32,000 nt of DNA from an uncultured candidatus Brocadiaceae bacterium (GTDB lineage Bacteria; Planctomycetota; Brocadiia; SM23-32). The stretch is from assembly GCA_964655775.1 (NCBI GenBank), contig CAZZNQ010000005.1, positions 11,157 through 43,156 on the forward strand. Reading direction: 5' to 3'. Both the position numbers and the translations under genes were made by a program. Shown here one piece after another: positions 10,396-19,388 of the stretch (positions are counted from its first letter, which is position 1; each line of letters starts with the position of its first letter). The notes below the pieces were generated by a model. That model saw nothing but the letters and a program-made list of their open reading frames with translations. It was not told the DNA's origin and made no database searches.

Positions 10396-13300
10396 ATGAG
10401 AATCGAGAACAGAGTCCTTCTTCTGTGCATGTTGCTGGGAATCGGTTTCTGGGTGCTGGAGGGCCTCGTGGACTACGCGGTCTTTCATGAGGGACCTTTC
10501 TGGGGCACGATGATCACCGAAGTAGAATCCGCGGAGGTCTTCGACCGCGCCGCCGGCGTTGCAGCGTTCGTCGGCTTGGGGTTCGTCCTCTGGTGGATAG
10601 TGCGTCAGCGCCGACGCACCGAAGAGACTTTGGCCGAGCGCGTAAAGGAGCTAAGCTGCCTCTACGCAGTGAGTTCGCTGATAGAGAAGGGGGGCTCGGA
10701 TCTGCCCGCGGCCTTGGAGGGCGTAGTGCACGCCATCCCTGCCGGCTGGCAGCAGCCCGAAGCTATTTGCGCGCGGATCCGGCTGGATGGGCAGGAGTAT
10801 GTAAGCGACGGTTTCCGCGAGACGCAGTGGAAGCTGCAAGCACCGATCATTGTCAAGGAACATACCATCGGCAGCGTTGAGGTGTTCTGCATCGGCCCGA
10901 AGCCCGAGGAGGGCGAAGCCGTATTCCTCAACGAGGAGCGGCAGTTGCTGGACGAGATCGCCGAGCGAATCGGTCGCTTGATGGAGCGGTTGCGCGCATC
11001 CAGGGCGCTGCGCGACAGCGAAACGCGCTTCCGGAGCGCCGTGGTGATGGCGCCGGTACCCATCATGGTGCACGCCGAGGACGGCGAGGTTCTATCTCTG
11101 AGCCGGCGCTGGGAGACGATGACGGGATACACCCTCGGGGACATACCGACGGTAGATAAGTGGTGTCAGAAGGCCTACGGCGCCGACGCCGAGCGCATCA
11201 GACAACGCATCGGACAACTTTACGAGGAAGGTGATGGCGTGCATGATGCGGAGGTCACCGTCACCTGCTCGGACGGCTCAGATAGTACCTGGATGATCCG
11301 AACGTCCCTGCTGGGGCGACTGCCCGACGGAAGGGCGGCTGCCATCACGGTGGGCACTGACGTGACCGAGCGCCGACAGGGGGAACGCCGGATCGCCCAT
11401 CTCAACGGTGTGCTCAAGGCCATCCGCAACGTGAACCAGCTCATCGTGCGTGAGAAGGACAGAAGCGCTCTGCTGAGGCAGGCCTGCGAGTGCATGGTCG
11501 AGACCCGTGACGTCGACAGCGTGTGGATCGCGTTGTTTGACAAAGGTGACCTCACCGAGAGCGCCCAGGCCGGCCTGGGTGAAGCTTTTGACGAGCTTCG
11601 AAAGGAGATGGAAGCAGGCGATTTGCCGATATGCGTGCGGACGATAATGGCGGAAGGAGCCGACTTAGTGACCGGCAGCACGGACACTTGCGAAGGATGC
11701 CCGGTGGCAGGCGCATGCCCCGCCGCATCCGCTGTCATAGCGTTGGGGCACGCAGGCACTCGCTACGGCGTCCTGGCTGTGAACATCCCGTCCAGCGGGG
11801 AGCCGGACGAAGAGGAACTGTTCCTGCTGAAGGAACTGGCCGATGACATCGGCCTCGCCCTCCACAGCATCGAGTTGGAGCAGGAACGCGACCAGGCTGA
11901 TGAAGCACTCAGAGAAAGCGAAGAGAAGTACCGGATGCTGGCGCAGAACACGCTGGACTGCATCTGGACGCTGGACATGGACATGCGCTTCACCTACGTG
12001 AATCCTGCCGTCGAACGCATCTTCGGCTTCACACCCCAGGAGTTCATCGGCAGCCCCCTCAGCGACTACTGCACGCCCGAGCAATACGAACGGATGGCAG
12101 CCTTAGCCCAGGCGGAACTCGCCAAGCCGCCGCACGAGTCACGAATCATGTTCGAGGCATTTCTGCTCGACAAACAGGGCAAGGAGGTCCCGGTCGAGAT
12201 ATACGGCCGAGTCAACTACGACGACGATGGCCGGCCCGTCTCCATCCAGGGCGTCACGCGCGACGTGTCGGAGCGGTTCGAGATGCAGGAACGGCTGCGT
12301 CTGTCCCAACGCATGGAGGCCGTCGGCCAGCTCGCCGGTGGAATCGCCCACGACTTCAACAACATTCTCACCGGCATCATCGGCTACACCCAACTCATCC
12401 TCAACCAGACCGAGGAAGGCTCAGAGCAGCACGAAGACCTGCAGGAGGTGGAACACCTCGCGAAACGGGCCGCCGACCTGACACAGCAACTGCTCGCTTT
12501 CAGCCGCAAACAGGCCCTCGAACCGCGTGTGGTCAACATCAACTCCCTCATCGCGAACGTGACCAAGATGCTGGGACGCGTGCTGGGCGAGAACATCGAC
12601 CTGGAGTTCCATTCCGACCCGTCACTGTGGAACGTGCAGGTCGATCCGGGGCAAATCGAACAGGTGCTGATGAATCTGGCGGTGAACGCGCGGGACGCAA
12701 TGCCGGACGGCGGCAAGCTGACCATCGAGACTGCCAACGTGGAACTCGATGAGGAGTATGCACGGAACCACGCGGCGGTGGCACCTGGGCCACACGTGAT
12801 GATCGCCGTCTCCGACACCGGTGCGGGGATGGACGCCGAGACACGAGAGCGCATCTTCGAACCGTTCTTCACAACCAAGACCGCCGGCCGAGGAACCGGA
12901 CTGGGGCTCTCCACCGTTTACGGCATCGTCAAGCAACACGAGGGGAACATCTGGGTCTACAGCGAGCCCGGACAGGGAACGACGTTCAAGGTCTACTTCC
13001 CGCGCGTGGAAGCGGAAGTGGAGCCTGCCGATCTGCAGAAACCGGATGACCCTGGCTACGGGTCGGAGACCGTCCTCATCGTCGAGGACGAACCGGACGT
13101 GCTCAGTGTCGCCCGGCGCAGCCTGGAGCGACGGGGATTCCGGGTGATGGCCGCGAAGGACGCTTCCGAGGCCGAACGAATCATGGCCGAGAGAGCCGAC
13201 GAAATCGCGCTGCTGCTCACCGACGTTGTCCTGCCCGAGGTGAGCGGACGCGCGCTCTACGACGGACTCGCCGAGAAGTACCCGGAGCTGAAGGTCCTCT

Positions 13301-13428
13301 ACATGTCCGGCTACACGGGCAACGCCATCGTCCATCACGGAGTGCTCGACCGGGGGACAGCATTCATGCAGAAGCCGTTCACGCCTGACCGGATCGCCCG
13401 TCGCGTGCGCGAAGTGCTGGACTCCTGA
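10396..13428 (+). CDS. Hybrid sensor histidine kinase / response regulator (2 TM, unnamed N-terminal module, PAS, GAF-like, PAS, HisKA, HATPase_c, REC)
   Basis: 1010 aa. H-box AHDFNNILTGIIGY; N-box LMNLAVNARDAM; G-boxes DTGAGMD and GTGLGLS. Receiver domain shown by VLIVEDEPDVL ... LLLTDVVLP ... YMSGY ... KPF. PAS-type segments start near RFRSAVVMAPVPIMVH and KYRMLAQNTLDCIWTLD. Confidence 0.95.
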   Translation: MRIENRVLLLCMLLGIGFWVLEGLVDYAVFHEGPFWGTMITEVESAEVFDRAAGVAAFVGLGFVLWWIVRQRRRTEETLAERVKELSCLYAVSSLIEKGGSDLPAALEGVVHAIPAGWQQPEAICARIRLDGQEYVSDGFRETQWKLQAPIIVKEHTIGSVEVFCIGPKPEEGEAVFLNEERQLLDEIAERIGRLMERLRASRALRDSETRFRSAVVMAPVPIMVHAEDGEVLSLSRRWETMTGYTLGDIPTVDKWCQKAYGADAERIRQRIGQLYEEGDGVHDAEVTVTCSDGSDSTWMIRTSLLGRLPDGRAAAITVGTDVTERRQGERRIAHLNGVLKAIRNVNQLIVREKDRSALLRQACECMVETRDVDSVWIALFDKGDLTESAQAGLGEAFDELRKEMEAGDLPICVRTIMAEGADLVTGSTDTCEGCPVAGACPAASAVIALGHAGTRYGVLAVNIPSSGEPDEEELFLLKELADDIGLALHSIELEQERDQADEALRESEEKYRMLAQNTLDCIWTLDMDMRFTYVNPAVERIFGFTPQEFIGSPLSDYCTPEQYERMAALAQAELAKPPHESRIMFEAFLLDKQGKEVPVEIYGRVNYDDDGRPVSIQGVTRDVSERFEMQERLRLSQRMEAVGQLAGGIAHDFNNILTGIIGYTQLILNQTEEGSEQHEDLQEVEHLAKRAADLTQQLLAFSRKQALEPRVVNINSLIANVTKMLGRVLGENIDLEFHSDPSLWNVQVDPGQIEQVLMNLAVNARDAMPDGGKLTIETANVELDEEYARNHAAVAPGPHVMIAVSDTGAGMDAETRERIFEPFFTTKTAGRGTGLGLSTVYGIVKQHEGNIWVYSEPGQGTTFKVYFPRVEAEVEPADLQKPDDPGYGSETVLIVEDEPDVLSVARRSLERRGFRVMAAKDASEAERIMAERADEIALLLTDVVLPEVSGRALYDGLAEKYPELKVLYMSGYTGNAIVHHGVLDRGTAFMQKPFTPDRIARRVREVLDS

Positions 13429-13458: not shown

Positions 13459-14073
13459 CTACGCCCGCAACTTCGTCGTCGCTTCCGCCACACGCCGGCC
13501 CAGTGCCTCGGCGATTCTCAGATCCTCGTCGGTCGGCTCCAGGGAGTTGTCCGACCCCGCTACGGTCGACGGCCCGTACGGCGTTCCTCCCCTGCCGTCC
13601 GTGTGCAGCATTCCGTCCGTCGAATACGGCACGCCCACCACAATCATGCCCAGATGCAGCAGGGGCACCATCATCGTGAGCAGCGTCGTCTCCTGGCCGC
13701 CGTGCGTCGTGGCGGTCGACGTGAAGACGCCGGTCGGCTTGCCCTCCATGGCGCCGTCCAGCCACAGGCCGGCCAGGCCGTCGATCACGCGCTTCATCTG
13801 CGCGATCATGTTGCCGAACCTCGTCGGCGTCCCCCAGATGACGGCATCGGCCTCGCGCAGGTCGTCAGCCGTGCACTCCGGCACGTCCTTCTGCCGCTCC
13901 CAGACGGGCGCGGCGTGCTCGCTCTCCATGATCGCTTCGAGGTCCTCCGGGAACTCGGGCGCGCGACGGAACACCACCTCGACTCCCTCAACGCCCTCCG
14001 CACCGCGCTCCACCGCCCGCGCCATCTTCAGCACGTGCCCGTACTTCGAGTAATAGACAATCAGCACCTTCAT
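13459..14073 (-). CDS. wrbA: NAD(P)H:quinone oxidoreductase, WrbA type (flavodoxin-like fold)
   Basis: MKVLIVYYSKYGHVLKMARAVERGAEGV... with GTPTRFGNMIAQMKRVIDGL and GVFTSTATTHGGQETT, matching WrbA signatures. The ATG at 14073 has AAGGGGGG upstream. The track ORF extends 60 codons further through Arg/Gly-rich sequence, which I judge non-coding. Confidence 0.9.
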   Translation of the reverse strand: MKVLIVYYSKYGHVLKMARAVERGAEGVEGVEVVFRRAPEFPEDLEAIMESEHAAPVWERQKDVPECTADDLREADAVIWGTPTRFGNMIAQMKRVIDGLAGLWLDGAMEGKPTGVFTSTATTHGGQETTLLTMMVPLLHLGMIVVGVPYSTDGMLHTDGRGGTPYGPSTVAGSDNSLEPTDEDLRIAEALGRRVAEATTKLRA

Positions 14074-14232
14074 TGCACTGCCCCCCTTCATCTGCCAAGA
14101 GACTCCGGACACGGCGGCCGCCCCCGGCCGCCTGCAACCGATGATACTGCCTCCGCCCGTGCCCAGGCAAATCGCGTCGCCGCGCCGGCACACGCCGCCG
14201 CGGAACCCGCACGGATTTCGATCCATCAGCAT

Positions 14233-14261
14233 TTGACGCCTCCGAGAAAGCACAGTAGGAT
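14233..14261 (+). promoter_or_regulatory. Candidate sigma70-type promoter for the arsR-family operon (TTGACG-17 nt-TAGGAT)
   Basis: TTGACG at 14233-14238, a 17-nt spacer, then TAGGAT at 14256-14261. This implies a very short leader before the ATG at 14281. It sits in the only AT-rich patch of the wrbA/arsR intergenic region. Confidence 0.4.
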
Positions 14262-14277
14262 ATTAGTGGATACTAAT
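14262..14277. promoter_or_regulatory. Candidate operator: perfect 6-4-6 palindrome ATTAGT-GGAT-ACTAAT
   Basis: Seen directly at 14262-14277, between the putative -10 box and the arsR ATG, the position expected for an autorepressor site. It can also be read as an imperfect direct repeat, GGATATTAGT / GGATACTAAT (14258-14277). Confidence 0.4.
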
Positions 14278-14280
14278 GCT

Positions 14281-14598
14281 ATGGAAGCCAGCGACCCCAG
14301 AGACATCCGGCGGATGACTAAGGTGCTCTCCTCGGAGGTGCGCGTCCGCATACTGCAGCTCCTCAAGGGCCGCGCGCTGTGCGTCAACGCCCTGGCGTCG
14401 CGGCTGGACGTTACGCAGGGCGCCGTGTCGCAGCACTTGCGCATCATGCGGGACGCGGACCTCGTCATCGATGAGAAGCGCGGATCCTTCGTCCACTACC
14501 GTCTGAACAAAGGAACTCTTTCCGCATGGCAAGAGGCGCTGGGCCGGCTTCTGGACTCCTCGAACTCACCACCCGTTGACTCCGAAGGAGCATGGTAA
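14281..14598 (+). CDS. ArsR/SmtB-family winged-helix transcriptional repressor
   Basis: 105 aa. VLSSEVRVRILQLLKGRALCVNALASRLDVTQGAVSQHLRIMRDADLVIDEKRGSFVHYRL is a typical ArsR helix-turn-helix plus wing. Only one Cys (C34) lies where ArsR has its CVC metalloid site. It is the last 105 codons of track ORF 13603..14598. Confidence 0.9.
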   Translation: MEASDPRDIRRMTKVLSSEVRVRILQLLKGRALCVNALASRLDVTQGAVSQHLRIMRDADLVIDEKRGSFVHYRLNKGTLSAWQEALGRLLDSSNSPPVDSEGAW

Positions 14599-14744
14599 TG
14601 TGTTGCTGCAAGGACAAGGAAACCTCGTGCAGGAAGCCGGAGAACCTGAAGGGCAAGCCCGGGGACTGCTCCGCCGACCAGATTGAGAAATGCCACGGCA
14701 GCGCCAAGGAGCACCCCTGTGTGCGCACCACCGACCGAGGATAG
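14598..14744 (+). CDS. Unannotated 48-aa Cys/His-rich, Lys-rich microprotein (putative metal- or thiol-reactive binding peptide)
   Basis: The ATG at 14598 overlaps the arsR stop (TAATG). AAGGAG (14585-14590) lies 7 nt upstream. Product: MCCCKDKETSCRKPENLKGKPGDCSADQIEKCHGSAKEHPCVRTTDRG, with 7 Cys, 2 His and 7 Lys. By hand count, 40 of 47 codons after the ATG end in G/C. Stop TAG at 14742-14744. Below the length cut-off of the ORF track. Confidence 0.65.
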   Translation: MCCCKDKETSCRKPENLKGKPGDCSADQIEKCHGSAKEHPCVRTTDRG

Positions 14745-15744
14745 CGGCCCAACCCCCACCGCGGGCGCCGCAATCGAGGTCGAGCGGCTGGCGAAGAGTT
14801 TCGGCGACGTCCGAGCCGTGTCGGGTGTACACTTCCAGGTGCGCGAAGGGGAGCTCTTCGGCTTCCTCGGGCCGAACGGCGCCGGGAAGACCACCACCAT
14901 CAACATGCTCACCGGCCTGGCCCGGCCCGATGCGGGAACGATCCGCTTCTTCGAGCGGGACTACACGACGAACGTGAAGCGCGCACAGCACCTGATGGGC
15001 GTGGTGCCGGACGAGAGCAACCTGTACCCCGAACTCGACGGCTTCGAGAACCTCCGCTTCTGCGCGTCACTCTACGGCATGCGCCGACGCGAACGCGAAG
15101 CCCGCGCGCGCGAGCTGCTGGACACTTTCGGCCTGGCGGACGTGGGCGGGCGGAAGTTCGCCGCCTATTCGCGTGGCATGAAGCGCAAGCTGGCCATCGC
15201 CGCCGGCATCATCCACCACCCGCGCATCCTCTTCCTGGACGAGCCGACCACGGGCATCGACGTCGCCAGCGCGCGCCAGATACGCCGCCTGATCGCCGGG
15301 ATGAACGATGCCGGCACCAGCGTCTTCCTCACCACGCATTACATCGAGGAAGCCGAGCGCCTCTGCGACCGCATAGCCTTCATCGTGGAGGGGCGTGTCG
15401 TGCGGATCGACACCGTTGCGGACCTGGTCAGGGACGTGCAGGGGCGCCACGTCGTACAGCTCGCCCTCGGCGCTGAGGCCGGCTCCCTGCTGGATCCGCT
15501 GCGTGCCGAGTTCCCGAAAGTCGAGTTCGAGCCGCTCGCCGGCAACAGCCTGCGCGCCCACACGGAGAAGCCGCTTCCGCTGGCGCCCCTCGTGCGGTTC
15601 TTCGAGGAGCAGGGCGTGGACGTCACCGAGGCGCGCGCCATCCGACCGTCGCTGGAGGACGTGTTCGTCCGGGTCACCGGCGTCGCCCTGGAGCGCATGC
15701 GCAAGGAGAAGGAAGGCGGCAAGCAGAAAGGGGGCGGGAAGTGA
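14719..15744 (+). CDS. ABC transporter ATP-binding protein (DrrA/NatA-like, partner of an ABC-2 permease)
   Basis: Walker A GPNGAGKTT, signature SRGMKRKL, Walker B ILFLDEPTTGID, and a C-terminal extension typical of ABC-2-type ATPases. I chose GTG 14719 because AAGGAG (14706-14711) lies 7 nt upstream. The track start at 14683 is a TTG with no SD. No start codon exists downstream of the microORF stop and ahead of the conserved core. Confidence 0.9.
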   Translation: MCAPPTEDSGPTPTAGAAIEVERLAKSFGDVRAVSGVHFQVREGELFGFLGPNGAGKTTTINMLTGLARPDAGTIRFFERDYTTNVKRAQHLMGVVPDESNLYPELDGFENLRFCASLYGMRRREREARARELLDTFGLADVGGRKFAAYSRGMKRKLAIAAGIIHHPRILFLDEPTTGIDVASARQIRRLIAGMNDAGTSVFLTTHYIEEAERLCDRIAFIVEGRVVRIDTVADLVRDVQGRHVVQLALGAEAGSLLDPLRAEFPKVEFEPLAGNSLRAHTEKPLPLAPLVRFFEEQGVDVTEARAIRPSLEDVFVRVTGVALERMRKEKEGGKQKGGGK

Positions 15745-16478
15745 AGTCCTGGATCGCCTTCTGGAGCATCCTCAAGAAGGACATGCGCACCTATTACCTT
15801 AAGCCGCCGAACCTGAGCTGGGGCATCATCTTCCCGCTGGCGTGGACGCTGATGTTTTTCATCAAGTCCGGCAGCGGTTTCGGCGACGTGCGCGGCATCC
15901 TGCCCGGAGTCATGGCGCTCTCCATCCTCTTCGGCACCACCTCCATGCTGGCCGTGACGGTGACGTTCGAGAAGAAGGGGCGGTCGTTCGAGCGCCTGCT
16001 TCTGGCGCCGATGCCGTTGGAGTTGCTGATGCTTGCCAAGACGTCGGGGGCGGTGATTTTTGGCGTCGCGAACGCGTTCGTGCCGGTGCTGATGGCCGCG
16101 TTCCTCACGGATCTATCCGGCGTGGACTGGCTGACACTCGTGCCCGCCATCGTGCTCATCGCGATCAGCTCGACGTTCCTGGGCCTGCTGATCGCGGTGT
16201 CCGTCAGCGAGGTCTTCGAGGCGCAGACGTTCTCGAACTTCTTCCGCTTCCCGATGCTGTTCCTGTGCGGCCTGTTCTTCCCGCTGGAGGCACTGCCGGG
16301 CGTGCTCCGGCCGGCCAGCTATCTCCTGCCCCTCACCTACGGTGCAGACCTTCTTCACGGTGCAGTCAATCGGGCGGCCGTGAGGCCCGTGCCGCTGAAC
16401 TTCGCGCTGCTGGCCGCCTTCTGCGTCGTCCTGTTCCTGGTAAGCCTGCGCAACGTCAACCGCAAGTGGATCCTGTAG
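15741..16478 (+). CDS. ABC-2 type transporter permease (6 TM)
   Basis: 245 aa and hydrophobic throughout, with ABC-2 topology. The GTG start overlaps the ATPase stop (GTGA, 15741-15744), with AAGGGGG upstream. Confidence 0.9.
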   Translation: MKSWIAFWSILKKDMRTYYLKPPNLSWGIIFPLAWTLMFFIKSGSGFGDVRGILPGVMALSILFGTTSMLAVTVTFEKKGRSFERLLLAPMPLELLMLAKTSGAVIFGVANAFVPVLMAAFLTDLSGVDWLTLVPAIVLIAISSTFLGLLIAVSVSEVFEAQTFSNFFRFPMLFLCGLFFPLEALPGVLRPASYLLPLTYGADLLHGAVNRAAVRPVPLNFALLAAFCVVLFLVSLRNVNRKWIL

Positions 16479-16616
16479 CGCCCTGCCCTCAGGCCCAGCC
16501 GGTGCAGTGTGCGGCGAGGGCCGCCCAATTCTCTTAGCGGAACCCGCCCTTATCCGTTACCATGCAGTCGTGGAGGCCGTCCCTCCGGACGGTGACTCAG
16601 GGAGAGGGAGGGACAT

Positions 16617-19235
16617 ATGCACGTTGCACGTCGGTGGGGATTCCTGTGGTTGTGCACCTTCTGTCTGCTGCTGCCCGGCTGCGGGGAGAACATCCATTCT
16701 GCGTCCCTCCGGGGAGACGTTGAGGAGGTGCGCCTGCTCCTGAGGCAGGGAGCCGACCCCGATGCCCGGCGAGTGGCCGCCATGCCGGGCCACGATGAGG
16801 CCTACACTCCCCTGATCTACGCCGCCATCGGCGGCCATCCGGACGTCATCCGCCTCCTCTTGAAACACGGTGCCGATCCCCATCTTGCCGACTCCCACGG
16901 CTACACGGCCCTGCACCACGCCGCCTGGGAAGGCCACGAGGCCGCCGCCCGCGCCCTTCTGGCCCACGGCGTGGACGTCGATACAGGGAACGATTTCGGT
17001 GAGACGCCCCTCCACCACGTCACCAACAAGACCGCCGACCGAACCCGCGAACACCTGGGCGTCCTCCGGCTGCTGCTCGAGAAGGACGCCGACGTGAGCG
17101 CCACCGACCAGGACGGGCAGACTGCCCTGCACAACGCGGTGGAGCACGGCTGGCAGGCGGGCGCCGAGATGCTGCTCTCCCACGGCGCGGACGTCGCGGC
17201 GGCCGACGGCAGCGGGGAGACGCCCCTCCGGGAAGCCGTCCGTCGCGGCGACGCCCGGATGATGGACACTCTCCTGGAGCACGGAGCGAGGCACGATGCC
17301 TTCACCGCCGCTGCCCTGGGGAAAGCCGACCTGCTGGCCGACATGCTCGAAGACGACCCCGGCCTCGTTCGCAGCCGGGACGAGGCGAGCGGAGACACGC
17401 TCCTGCACCTGGCCGCCGCCCGCGGCAACCACGCAACGGTGGAGCTTCTGCTCGCGTCCGGCGCGGACGTCGACGCGGCGAACAAGTGGGGGGAAACGGC
17501 GCTCTCGGCGGCATCCCGGCGGGGGCACACGCAGGCCGAATCGCTGCTGCTGGCGAGCGGGGCCGACCCCGGCGACCGGGTTGACCTCACCCGGAGGACG
17601 GTTTCCCGGCCGGGCCTGAGGCTGCGCCATCCGGGTCCGGCGCACTGGATCGTCTCCACCGAGACCTGGCAGCTCTACGCTGCCGTTCCGGAACCCGAAA
17701 TCGAAGCCGAATACGCCGTCTGGGACATCGGCATGGTCGGGGCAGACAGGAACCGAGGGGGTGCCGCATCCGCCGGGGGAGCCGACGCCGAGGACCTCAT
17801 CGACGCCGTCCGGGTGGTGATCGCCAAAGAGCCCTCCCGGACCGTGGCGGAGCTGCGCAGACTTCGCGTGCCCTTCGAGCGCGACGACCTGGAGCGCGGC
17901 TACACTCGCCGACGGTTCCGGTTTCCGCAGGCGGGCCGGTACTGGCTCCGATGCACCTTCCACGATTCGGACGACCGTCCGGTGGCCGAAAGCCTCTGGG
18001 CCGTGACGTCGAGCGACAACTACCTGGCCGGGCTGGGCTGGGCTTTCGACCCTTCCGAGCTGGGGGAGATGGTATTCATCGAGGGAGGCAGCTTCCGGAT
18101 GGGGGCGCCGTCTTCTGCCCGGGCCAGGGAGGGGGAGCGCCCCCCGCACAGGGTGCGCGTGGACGACTTCTGGATCGGCAAGTATCCGGTTGCCGCCCGG
18201 GAGTTCTCGGAGTTCCTCAACGATCGCGGCAACCCGGACCATCGCTACCTGCGCGGGGACGCGTGGCGCCTCGCCTTCATGAAAGGGCATTTTGAGGAGG
18301 ACCTCGCGGCGGGGCGTGACGACCCGGAGAGGATCCAGAGACATATCGAGGACCTCGATGCCTTCTTTGCTCCCGTCGTCCAGTGGCCTCCCCGGCCCGA
18401 GATGGCCGCAAAGCACGATTTCGTCTACGAAGAGATGCTGGGCGCCCAGGGATCGATGGTTCCCGGTTGGTGCAATGTCGTTCTGGACCCCCGGACGGGC
18501 CTCTACCGTCCGCGGGGCGAACTGGACTTCTGTCCCGCCCATCGCGTCACGTGGTTCGGGGCGGTGGAATACTGCCGCTGGCTGAGCGAGCGCACGGGCC
18601 GCAGCTACCGCCTGCCCACCGAGGCCGAGTGGGAATACGCCGCGCGGGGGCGCGAGGGGCGGTCGCAGCCATGGGGCTTTCGGGCGCCTTTCGGCAAGGG
18701 CAAGGTGCCGTGGAGCTCGCTGTTCGGCGTTTTCGACAGGCAGATGGGCGTCTACCTGAACTACAATCACATCAACGTGGGATCGTTCCCGTACGGCGAT
18801 ACGCCGGAGGGCGTCGCGGACATGGTGGGCTATGTGCCGCAGTGGTGCAGCGACGCCTACTCCCGGGATTACTACAGACGCTCGCCGGTGGACAATCCCA
18901 CCGGCCCGGAGGTGCCCGAGGGGGAGCGAGATACCGTGCGGAGGTCTTTGAGGGGTGAAGGCTGGGGAACCGGAAGCTGGCTGAAGACGGAATACGTGGT
19001 CGCGCCCGCCTGGGCTCGGGCTGCGGTACCTCCGGCTTACCTGACGGACTATGGATTTCGGGTGGTGATGGAACCCGTGCACGGCGAGAAGGGAGGGACG
19101 CGTTCGTCGCCCAGCGCCTCCGGAACCGGAAACCAGGGAGCGGTCATCCTGGGAGCGACGGCGTCTGTGATGCTGACTCTCCTGGTGTTTGCCCTCTATC
19201 GCGCGCGGATTGAGCAAGCGGGCAGGACCAGGTAG
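16617..19235 (+). CDS. Envelope protein: signal peptide/possible lipobox, ~8-9 ankyrin repeats, linker domain, FGE-sulfatase-fold domain, C-terminal TM anchor
   Basis: GGGAGG lies 5 nt upstream of the ATG. N-terminus MHVARRWGFLWLCTFCLLLPGCGEN. Ankyrin consensus recurs (G-TPLH/TALH..A...GH......LL..GADV). FGE-sulfatase strings: FIEGGSFRMGAP, HRVRVDDFWIGKYPV, YRLPTEAEWEYAARG, GFRVV. C-terminal hydrophobic stretch AVILGATASVMLTLLVFALY followed by RARIEQAGRTR. The full-length antisense ORF 16557..19244 is shadow sequence. Confidence 0.85.
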   Translation: MHVARRWGFLWLCTFCLLLPGCGENIHSASLRGDVEEVRLLLRQGADPDARRVAAMPGHDEAYTPLIYAAIGGHPDVIRLLLKHGADPHLADSHGYTALHHAAWEGHEAAARALLAHGVDVDTGNDFGETPLHHVTNKTADRTREHLGVLRLLLEKDADVSATDQDGQTALHNAVEHGWQAGAEMLLSHGADVAAADGSGETPLREAVRRGDARMMDTLLEHGARHDAFTAAALGKADLLADMLEDDPGLVRSRDEASGDTLLHLAAARGNHATVELLLASGADVDAANKWGETALSAASRRGHTQAESLLLASGADPGDRVDLTRRTVSRPGLRLRHPGPAHWIVSTETWQLYAAVPEPEIEAEYAVWDIGMVGADRNRGGAASAGGADAEDLIDAVRVVIAKEPSRTVAELRRLRVPFERDDLERGYTRRRFRFPQAGRYWLRCTFHDSDDRPVAESLWAVTSSDNYLAGLGWAFDPSELGEMVFIEGGSFRMGAPSSARAREGERPPHRVRVDDFWIGKYPVAAREFSEFLNDRGNPDHRYLRGDAWRLAFMKGHFEEDLAAGRDDPERIQRHIEDLDAFFAPVVQWPPRPEMAAKHDFVYEEMLGAQGSMVPGWCNVVLDPRTGLYRPRGELDFCPAHRVTWFGAVEYCRWLSERTGRSYRLPTEAEWEYAARGREGRSQPWGFRAPFGKGKVPWSSLFGVFDRQMGVYLNYNHINVGSFPYGDTPEGVADMVGYVPQWCSDAYSRDYYRRSPVDNPTGPEVPEGERDTVRRSLRGEGWGTGSWLKTEYVVAPAWARAAVPPAYLTDYGFRVVMEPVHGEKGGTRSSPSASGTGNQGAVILGATASVMLTLLVFALYRARIEQAGRTR

Positions 19236-19388
19236 CAGCTTCATTTTGGATCTTGACTCTTATGGCCCATCCGCCCACAGGCTAGCAGACCGTGCTCGCC
19301 CTTCCGCGAAGGGGTACGCGATGCACCGTAGTAGCCGGGACACGCGGACGGGCGGCGCACGCGCTGACGCGGGCGCCACGGCGAGCGC

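Follow-up and report, generated by a model that had tools for sequence, protein, structure and literature searches.

A four-gene ArsR/SmtB-family operon from a Brocadiaceae bacterium with a Cys4His2 mini-domain found fused to or split from the regulator: a candidate two-polypeptide sensor for an ABC-2 exporter

The 32,000-nucleotide stretch of DNA analysed here (the window) comes from an uncultured candidatus Brocadiaceae bacterium (contig CAZZNQ010000005.1). Divergent from wrbA, it carries four genes that encode an ArsR/SmtB-family repressor, a 48-residue Cys/His-rich microprotein (MCCCKDKETSCRKPENLKGKPGDCSADQIEKCHGSAKEHPCVRTTDRG), a DrrA-like ABC ATPase and an ABC-2 permease (Table 1). The four genes are chained by three overlaps, found at the exact coordinates reported in a preliminary description of this DNA: TAATG at 14596-14600 between arsR and the micro open reading frame (micro-ORF), 26 nt at 14719-14744 between the micro-ORF and the ATPase gene, and the 4-nt GTGA at 15741-15744 between the ATPase and permease genes. 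The Shine-Dalgarno sequence GAAGGAG (14584-14590) lies 7 nt ahead of the microprotein ATG at 14598, and the alternative ATG at 14592 is disfavoured because it is too near to this sequence. The sequence AAGGAG (14706-14711) is likewise 7 nt ahead of the ATPase GTG at 14719. The ATPase start is the least certain of the starts; TTG 14683 is open too, and orthologues begin ~15 residues later relative to the conserved core. The ATPase has no other canonical start, so its overlap with the micro-ORF is unavoidable.

Relatives of this module were compared in two sets, L001-L027 anchored on the microprotein, which include 26 genome loci, and 80 metagenome loci anchored on the ArsR clade. In high-GC loci, genes were called with weighting by GC content at third codon positions (GC3) and with anchoring by tblastn and hidden Markov models (HMM). 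The junction lengths vary among these relatives, with the arsR-micro junction ranging from -100 to +641 nt and the micro-to-ATPase distance from ~10 nt to 2 kb. The exact overlaps are peculiar to the window and not a conserved property of the module, and the fixed stoichiometry read from them in the preliminary description is not supported.

The micro-ORF is a genuine gene, far beyond chance. It is called as a gene by NCBI (P0001), and a pattern scan of one genome per species finds homologues of 48-75% identity in 26 loci, mostly from Planctomycetota (Phycisphaerae, Sedimentisphaerales) and otherwise from Anaerolineales, Hydrogenedentota, Spirochaetota, Clostridia and Fermentibacteria. A Shine-Dalgarno-like motif lies at -16 to -4 of the micro ATG in 54 of 56 split loci, where arsR and the micro-ORF are separate genes, compared with 18% of control 13-mers. 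A word-index search with the single microprotein sequence returns only itself and one relative; an exhaustive profile search gives 300 clusters at 50% identity, mostly of 40-90 residues, and a word-index profile search gives 1650 clusters at 90% identity. Tandem two-domain proteins of ~78 residues are frequent and are the commonest form among the top matches. One apparent member, P0008 (1275 residues, 14 matched stretches), is a eukaryotic low-complexity repeat protein and was rejected. The family signature is (M-C)-x4-8-C-x-K-P-E-x-L-K-G-x-P-x-x-C-S-P-E-Q-I-x-x-C-H-G-x4-H-P-C. In the window protein the conserved residues are C11, C24, C32, H33, H39 and C41, spaced C-x12-C-x7-CH-x5-H-x-C, together with the KPENLKG and SPEQI segments.

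The family clusters are all unnamed or annotated as hypothetical, and none has a Pfam domain. The window microprotein belongs to no Pfam or NCBIfam family, 49 family members have no match in these databases even at E<=1, and the family profile has no match among PDB sequences at E<=10. Pfam, NCBIfam and PDB searches find no sequence match to bacterial metallothionein (SmtA/BmtA), HMA chaperones (CopZ), ArsD or YHS/TRASH domains. A fold search with the microprotein model, itself of low confidence, gave no match, and no description of an ArsR-associated Cys-rich small protein or domain was found in the literature searched. The view that the thiol-rich peptide is a real and undescribed protein is thereby supported, and extends to a large unnamed family.

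The partner of the microprotein is a clear member of the ArsR/SmtB family, with 51.7 bits against PF01022 (HTH_5, cut-off 22) and 78 bits against NF033788 (cut-off 55). The model of a fused relative (P0041) predicted by AlphaFold2 (AF2) has the ArsR fold, with a predicted local distance difference test score (pLDDT) >90 over residues 10-90, and its fold matches include SmtB, CzrA, CadC and NolR as well as BigR, HlyU and PagR. As the preliminary description had stated, and as both sequence and alignment bear out, this ArsR has one Cys and neither of the classical metal sites. The single Cys is C34 in ALCVNAL, and it stands alone where the As(III) site of alpha3 has three Cys (ELCVCDLC). Residues 76-100 (NKGTLSAWQEALGRLLDSSNS...), which correspond to the alpha5 site of SmtB/CzrA, contain no His, and no such column is conserved in the alignment of 17 partners. 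C34 is invariant in 17/17 aligned split partners and in 52/52 fused relatives (C32 in fusion numbering), and most partners have no other Cys in the ArsR core. The protein falls below the cut-offs of the persulfide sensors BigR/SqrR (NF040642, 36.9 bits against 155, and only one Cys) and of the SdpR autorepressor (NF033789, 63.3 bits against 100, with no SdpI-like membrane partner). An assignment as TsoR (NF045707) was rejected; the match is weak, at 41 bits against a cut-off of 115, and the literature searched contained nothing on TsoR.

A connection between the two proteins comes from relatives in which they form one chain. A profile search found two ArsR-micro fusions of 151 and 170 residues and a third in a Clostridia metagenome-assembled genome (MAG; L024), and a search with the 151-residue fusion brought up dozens of in-frame ArsR-micro clusters of 147-198 residues and 40-88% identity. 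The hosts are Thermodesulfobacteriota, Syntrophorhabdaceae, Poribacteria, Lindowbacteria and a Clostridia MAG. Alignment of 52 fusions shows that the Cys and His residues of the micro domain are invariant, as is the ArsR Cys, and the fused regulators head the same pair of ATPase and ABC-2 permease genes in five of eight distinct contexts examined. Such frequent fusion is Rosetta-stone evidence that the microprotein works with ArsR. The fusions also retain at least 90% conservation of the Met equivalent to the start of the free microprotein (n=52), and an AGGAGG-like sequence lies 6-10 nt ahead of this internal ATG in 9/9 fused genes checked on DNA (Table 1). A free copy of the micro domain is therefore probably made even from the fused genes, by nested translation, and the conservation of the internal Shine-Dalgarno sequence and ATG suggests that such a copy is probably always made.

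The split loci retain what look like traces of a fused state. The arsR frame extends at least 43 nt into the micro-ORF in 25 of the 59 split loci, by 43-58 nt in 24 of them (the 25 are L002-L007, L009, L012, L016, L017, L019, L020, L027 and 12 metagenome loci), and in the genome loci looked at in detail it ends at an out-of-frame TGA that the ENLK codons create. Relative to arsR, the micro-ORF is in the minus 1 frame in all 25 loci and in the window, where an earlier TAA, overlapping the micro ATG, trims the tail of arsR. The simplest reading of these frames is that the split loci are frameshifted fusions, and the split would have been tolerated because the internal start already existed. Programmed -1 frameshifting was set aside in favour of this simpler account, and slippery sites were not sought.

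The control region of the operon is compact and conserved. A consensus scan for sigma-70-like promoters found two sites where 0.2 were expected; the operon has a promoter-like site at 14233-14261, and wrbA has one of its own on the opposite strand. The TTGAC(A) and TA-rich -10 layout also occurs 5' of arsR in the relatives inspected. The palindrome ATTAGT-N4-ACTAAT has its sole match in the 32-kb window at this place (0.03 expected); it adjoins the -10 hexamer and ends 3 nt ahead of the arsR ATG, implying that the arsR leader is very short, a property that is conserved in the relatives as well. The relatives carry one of two palindrome types, TTAG(C/T)-N4-(A/G)CTAA or AGTATC-N6-GATACTT, and within the 90 nt ahead of arsR one of them is present in 48 of 55 loci with ArsR+micro and in 31 of 41 with ArsR only, while neither occurs in 64 control segments (0/64). 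ArsR/SmtB proteins autoregulate through an inverted-repeat operator overlapping the promoter; a promoter and a conserved palindrome are present here, and the operon is probably autoregulated from the palindrome, the putative binding site of the repressor. The segment 14233-14280, proposed in the preliminary description for an electrophoretic mobility shift assay, contains both elements. No Shine-Dalgarno sequence is visible ahead of arsR (14262-14283), nor in relatives, e.g. ...ACTAAAATG, which suggests that the arsR mRNA is leaderless, or nearly so, when translated.

The last two genes encode an ABC-2 transporter with a separate, adjacent ATPase. The ATPase has 107.3 bits against ABC_tran (cut-off 25) and a weak match to the DrrA C-terminal domain; the six-helix permease has 92.2 bits against ABC2_membrane (PF01061, cut-off 26.9). 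Neither subunit reaches the curated DrrA or DrrB cut-off (TIGR01188, 285.1 against 312.45 bits; TIGR01247, 56.9 against 223.05). PDB searches with the ATPase and permease return generic ABCA/ABCG, LptB, NosF and Rv1218c relatives that give no clue to the substrate, and no informative relative for the permease. By its sequence, the pump can be assigned only in general terms, as an ABC-2 (type V) exporter.

Neighbourhood comparison places the regulator and the micro domain at the centre of the module. An ArsR orthologue lies directly upstream of the micro-ORF in 21 of the 26 micro-anchored genome loci, and the micro-ORF lies directly downstream of ArsR in 38 of the 80 metagenome loci; it follows ArsR in 24 of the 33 closest relatives with enough downstream DNA and is rarer among more distant ones. 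An orthologous exporter (ATPase at least 54% and permease at least 66% identical) follows ArsR and micro in 32 of 49 evaluable loci (12/20 genome, 20/29 metagenome) from several phyla, and in 17 loci its ATPase starts within 130 nt of the micro domain, directly adjacent as in the window. On the question, raised in the preliminary description, of whether the four genes are kept together in other genomes, the four-gene arrangement thus recurs, but the four genes are not the core unit. The constant core is ArsR plus the micro domain, whose tie to ArsR is closer than its tie to the pump; of several outputs, the pump is the most frequent. Genes that lie in between, or in place of the pump, include S-adenosylmethionine (SAM) methyltransferases (nine loci), DsrE-like genes (four loci), and genes for a small Cys protein, a membrane-anchored MarR-like winged helix-turn-helix protein, MOT1-type transporters, ChrA, Gfo/Idh/MocA and type-1 ABC exporters; a further such set is DUF134 with NifX-like and MinD-like genes.

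In L003 (3611-3964), L011 (6198-6545) and L043, the gene between micro (or arsR) and the ATPase gene encodes ~115 residues, with a transmembrane helix at the N terminus followed by a winged helix of the MarR-like type. A ~100-residue Cys protein (M-x-YN-x-IRCEAV...GICCQALS), with no Pfam or NCBIfam match, lies between micro and the ATPase gene in L006 (6486-6803), L020 (6201-6500) and L102. In the related loci the ATPase orthologues are 54-74% and the permease orthologues 66-78% identical, the latter also between MAGs of different phyla (Planctomycetota, Hydrogenedentota, Spirochaetota; L008, L011, L014, L025 and others), which suggests that the exporter cassette moves horizontally. WrbA, from which the preliminary description had derived a quinone or electrophile theme, is not linked to the module in its relatives. 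A tblastn search with the window protein gave no match in L001-L107, and no WrbA/FMN_red gene is listed in L108-L118, so that WrbA is present in 0 of 117 related loci searched (L002-L118); in the window wrbA has its own promoter-like site. The flanks at 10396-13428 and 16617-19235 bear no relation to the module either. One flanking gene encodes a 1010-residue hybrid histidine kinase (GAF, PAS, HisKA, HATPase, receiver) and the other an 872-residue ankyrin-repeat protein with an FGE-sulfatase domain; long antisense ORFs (e.g. 16557-19244, minus strand) are artefacts of high GC.

Sister ArsRs that lack the micro domain carry other Cys-rich modules at the same position. In L069, L070, L073-L075, L077, L084, L085, L094 and L106 the tail is C-x7-C-x-C-x-C (RLNRICTCGC) and Ser stands in place of the alpha3 Cys; the tail of L095 is CCCC...CC, and L103 has six HGECGCHG-HEPEEHRP repeats. 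A further subtype, found in 12 loci (L071, L072, L083, L087, L090, L092, L096, L098-L100, L105, L107), has a C-x4-C-x5-C insertion before the alpha3 Cys and is followed by a different small Cys/His-rich protein that begins MCCESESHHGGWHQGHRHGCSCGCGG..., continues as a coiled coil and has no Pfam match. This protein, which is not Pfam DUF5320, represents another microprotein family without a name that occupies the genomic slot of the first. The position after the ArsR core thus behaves as a slot for interchangeable thiol-rich modules, and their being swappable supports a sensory role.

Table 1. Positions and supporting evidence for the window features, and related loci that carry internal starts or metal-related neighbours.
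Feature	Locus	Positions	Strand	Remarks
wrbA	window	13459-14073	minus	WrbA equivalog match at 224 bits
Intergenic region wrbA/arsR	window			207 nt
Sigma-70-like promoter of the operon	window	14233-14261	plus	TTGACG, 17 nt, TAGGAT; consensus scan
Candidate ArsR operator, perfect inverted repeat ATTAGT-GGAT-ACTAAT	window	14262-14277	plus	conserved palindrome; putative binding site
arsR, ArsR/SmtB-family repressor, 105 aa	window	14281-14598	plus	ATG 14281, TAA 14596-14598; HTH_5, NF033788
Shine-Dalgarno GAAGGAG for the microprotein, inside the arsR 3' end	window	14584-14590	plus	read from sequence
micro-ORF, 48-aa Cys/His-rich microprotein	window	14598-14744	plus	ATG 14598, TAG 14742-14744; homologues, conserved Cys/His
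Shine-Dalgarno AAGGAG for the ABC ATPase, inside microprotein codons K-E-H	window	14706-14711	plus	read from sequence
DrrA-like ABC ATPase, nucleotide-binding subunit of ABC-2 / type V exporter	window	14719-15744	plus	GTG 14719, TGA 15742-15744; ABC_tran
ABC-2 family permease, 245 aa	window	15741-16478	plus	GTG 15741; ABC2_membrane
Fused gene with internal Shine-Dalgarno and ATG	L108	5001-5456		
Fused gene with internal Shine-Dalgarno and ATG	L110	5001-5465		
Fused genes with internal Shine-Dalgarno and ATG	L112, L114-L118			
Fused gene with internal Shine-Dalgarno and ATG	L024	4970-5413		
MFS_MOT1 neighbours	L004, L039, L046, L088, L089, L091, L116, L117			
ChrA neighbours	L025, L060, L063, L114, L117 and others			
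MoaE	L117	4977-5357		
FmdE	L110, L114			
TupA/WtpC/MobB-like	L027	6501-9771		

Taken together, these observations suggest an autoregulated ArsR/SmtB operon whose sensor is split into two polypeptides, with a Cys4His2 module that acts in trans, and which controls an exporter; we give this reading a probability of about one in two. The ArsR dimer, bound to the ATTAGT-N4-ACTAAT palindrome, would shut off arsR, micro, ATPase and permease. The 48-residue protein would be the detached form of a Cys4His2 mini-domain that elsewhere in the same ArsR clade is the C-terminal tail of the regulator. Its Cys and His ligands would bind the inducer, which could be a thiophilic metal or metalloid, a metal-sulfur species or a thiol-reactive oxidant, and together with the invariant C34 of ArsR would release the repressor from DNA. 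The ABC-2 exporter would then be made and would remove the offending compound. Among the three roles suggested in the preliminary description, a carrier for the pump, a cargo or a co-sensor, that of co-sensor fits best, because the domain accompanies ArsR irrespective of the cargo and in many cases forms one chain with it. A broader proposal, made more tentatively, is that the micro domain is an undescribed and widespread Cys4His2 sensory mini-domain that occurs fused, fused with an internal ribosome-binding site and ATG, or split in the -1 frame, and that gives ligand specificity in trans to an ArsR without a site of its own.

Neighbouring genes provide leads to the effector, and leads only, in three directions. 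For molybdenum, tungsten or other group-6 species, MOT1-type transporters occur in eight loci, ChrA-type in eight, MoaE in two and FmdE in four, all as raw counts; a Mo-enzyme operon adjoins L110 and a TupA/WtpC tungstate importer adjoins L027. Genes for DsrE-like proteins, TauE and cysteine desulfurase in some loci point to sulfur, and RND and Metal_resist genes in L112 and a MacB/OEP/CzcB-like MFP set in L108 may point to metal efflux. The module may sense a group-6 species (thio-molybdate, thio-tungstate, chromate) or a metal-sulfur cluster in anaerobes, which, if true, would be new chemistry for the ArsR/SmtB family.

Several points weigh against the split-sensor reading. That the microprotein touches ArsR or binds a ligand is something that we infer, together with the role of C34 and the identities of the effector and of the pump substrate. 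Six loci (L001 and five genome loci) have a micro-ORF with no adjacent ArsR, and the same pump occurs in six ArsR-only loci without micro, implying that the microprotein is not indispensable for regulation of that pump. The AF2 models of the micro domain reach only moderate confidence, with a pLDDT of 65 alone, where one helix covers SPEQIxxC, and of 60-76 within the fusion; a value such as that of the domain alone is usual for a metal-dependent mini-domain. The conserved internal start speaks for a need of a free copy, which would suit a chaperone or buffer as well, and the Cys4His2 set might do no more than hold a structural zinc.

The main rival, which we regard as doubtful, takes up the first of these alternatives. 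ArsR would control, in the microprotein, a small metal(loid)-binding protein of the cytosol that captures a toxic species and either buffers it or passes it to the ABC-2 exporter, and that may also deliver it to the repressor. CopZ in copYZAB, ArsD in arsRDAB and SmtA under SmtB are parallels, and because CopZ does both jobs this model is not exclusive of a split sensor. The order of repressor, small Cys-rich protein, ATPase and permease, the translational coupling to the ATPase and the close spacing of the two in 17 loci all agree with a carrier, as do the retention of the internal start in fused genes, the prevalence of tandem free forms among the top matches, which is expected of a binding protein, and the metal-efflux neighbours of L112 and L108. 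A carrier for the pump is harder to reconcile with the roughly one third of ArsR+micro loci that have no ABC-2 pump, with the loci in which the same pump is found with ArsR and no microprotein, and with the covalent attachment of the domain to the regulator in many lineages, as one would expect of a sensor but seldom of a carrier. Moreover, ABC-2 (type V) exporters are, to our knowledge, not known as metal-ion pumps, and the microprotein has no similarity to the HMA, ArsD or metallothionein families.

If the Cys4His2 site instead holds a structural zinc, the domain would serve in oligomerisation, DNA contact or partner recruitment; the site of effector sensing would then be elsewhere, or the regulator would respond to no ligand at all. 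The Cys/His pattern in Lys/Glu-rich surroundings is typical of small zinc-stabilised domains, AF2 shows little regular structure in the absence of metal, and HlyU, NolR and PagR, which are among the fold matches, are ArsR-family members that are not metal sensors. Such a purely structural role nevertheless seems improbable, given that a single Cys, located where alpha3 classically senses, is invariant in the ArsR partners, that sister clades swap the module for other, obviously metal-binding tails, and that the regulated genes are exporters and transporters, which fits ligand-responsive control. Least credible of all is that the peptide is exported, as cargo or as a precursor of the ribosomally synthesised and post-translationally modified peptide (RiPP) type, or that the ORF is a Cys-codon leader peptide attenuating the pump genes. 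A small ORF that lies directly upstream of an ABC exporter gene and overlaps it, with an N-terminal MCCC run, does invite these ideas. Conservation spans the full 40-residue domain from Planctomycetota to Clostridia, unlike the variable core behind a conserved leader of RiPP precursors, the neighbourhood has no consistent modifying enzyme, protease domain or signal, and the domain occurs without any ABC pump, is absent from some ArsR and pump loci, and forms part of a cytosolic DNA-binding protein, which argues against the cargo role offered earlier. As for a leader, the number of N-terminal Cys varies (MC, MCC, MCCC), and in the window the micro-ORF overlaps the ATPase start and leaves no room for an attenuator.

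For the split sensor proposed here, the closest functional analogies are copYZAB, the archaeal TRASH-domain cop cluster, SmtB/SmtA and ArsR/ArsD. The copYZAB genes of Enterococcus hirae likewise form one autoregulated operon of repressor, small Cys-containing cytosolic protein and exporter genes, in which CopZ is thought to feed its ligand to the repressor CopY. However, CopY does not have the ArsR fold, CopZ has the HMA/ferredoxin fold with MxCxxC whereas the microprotein has no HMA match, the exporters are P-type ATPases rather than ABC-2, and the microprotein of the present module shares homology with part of the regulator itself, as one of its domains. This last feature is met in the Sulfolobus cop cluster, where a TRASH domain is fused to the helix-turn-helix regulator CopR/CopT and also stands alone as a small protein next door, upstream of the exporter CopA; there the regulator fold and transporter class differ, and the TRASH signature C-x19-22-C-x3-C is unlike the spacing found here, which has no YHS/TRASH Pfam match at E<=1. 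In SmtB-SmtA and ArsR-ArsD-ArsA, an ArsR/SmtB repressor controls a small Cys-rich binding protein, and ArsD lies between arsR and the ATPase gene. SmtB senses Zn through its own alpha5 site and the R773 ArsR senses As(III) through its own CVC site, while the window ArsR has neither; SmtA and ArsD have no sequence similarity to the microprotein, and we know of no case in which they are domains of their repressors.

BigR, SqrR and HlyU share with the window ArsR the fold with a conserved Cys in the alpha2/alpha3 region, and some loci here have sulfur-related neighbours (DsrE-like, TauE). In those regulators both Cys are in one chain with no extra domain. By analogy, a second thiol from the micro domain could possibly close a di- or polysulfide with the ArsR Cys, but a set of four Cys and two His is more suggestive of a site for a metal or a cluster. 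The exporter resembles DrrAB/NatAB in its separate DrrA-like ATPase and six-helix ABC-2 permease, translationally coupled; it differs in that both subunits are below the curated cut-offs, and an ArsR-type regulator and a Cys-rich partner are not features of DrrAB or NatAB. What is new here is an ArsR/SmtB regulator with an undescribed, separable Cys4His2 module.

The ArsR/SmtB family is the textbook case of ligand specificity that can be read from a handful of known protein sites. The clade described here has none of these sites and has instead a small extra domain, fused or free, that is unnamed in databases. If this domain is the sensor, it would add a new, trans-acting type of sensory site to the family, account for thousands of microproteins annotated as hypothetical and of proteins annotated only as ArsR family in the genomes and metagenomes of anaerobes, and provide a handle on what an uncharacterised ABC-2 exporter cassette, found across phyla, removes from the cell. 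The fused genes, with their conserved internal start, illustrate cleanly how one natural gene can be nested in another, and how a regulator of two domains can be divided by a frameshift and still function.

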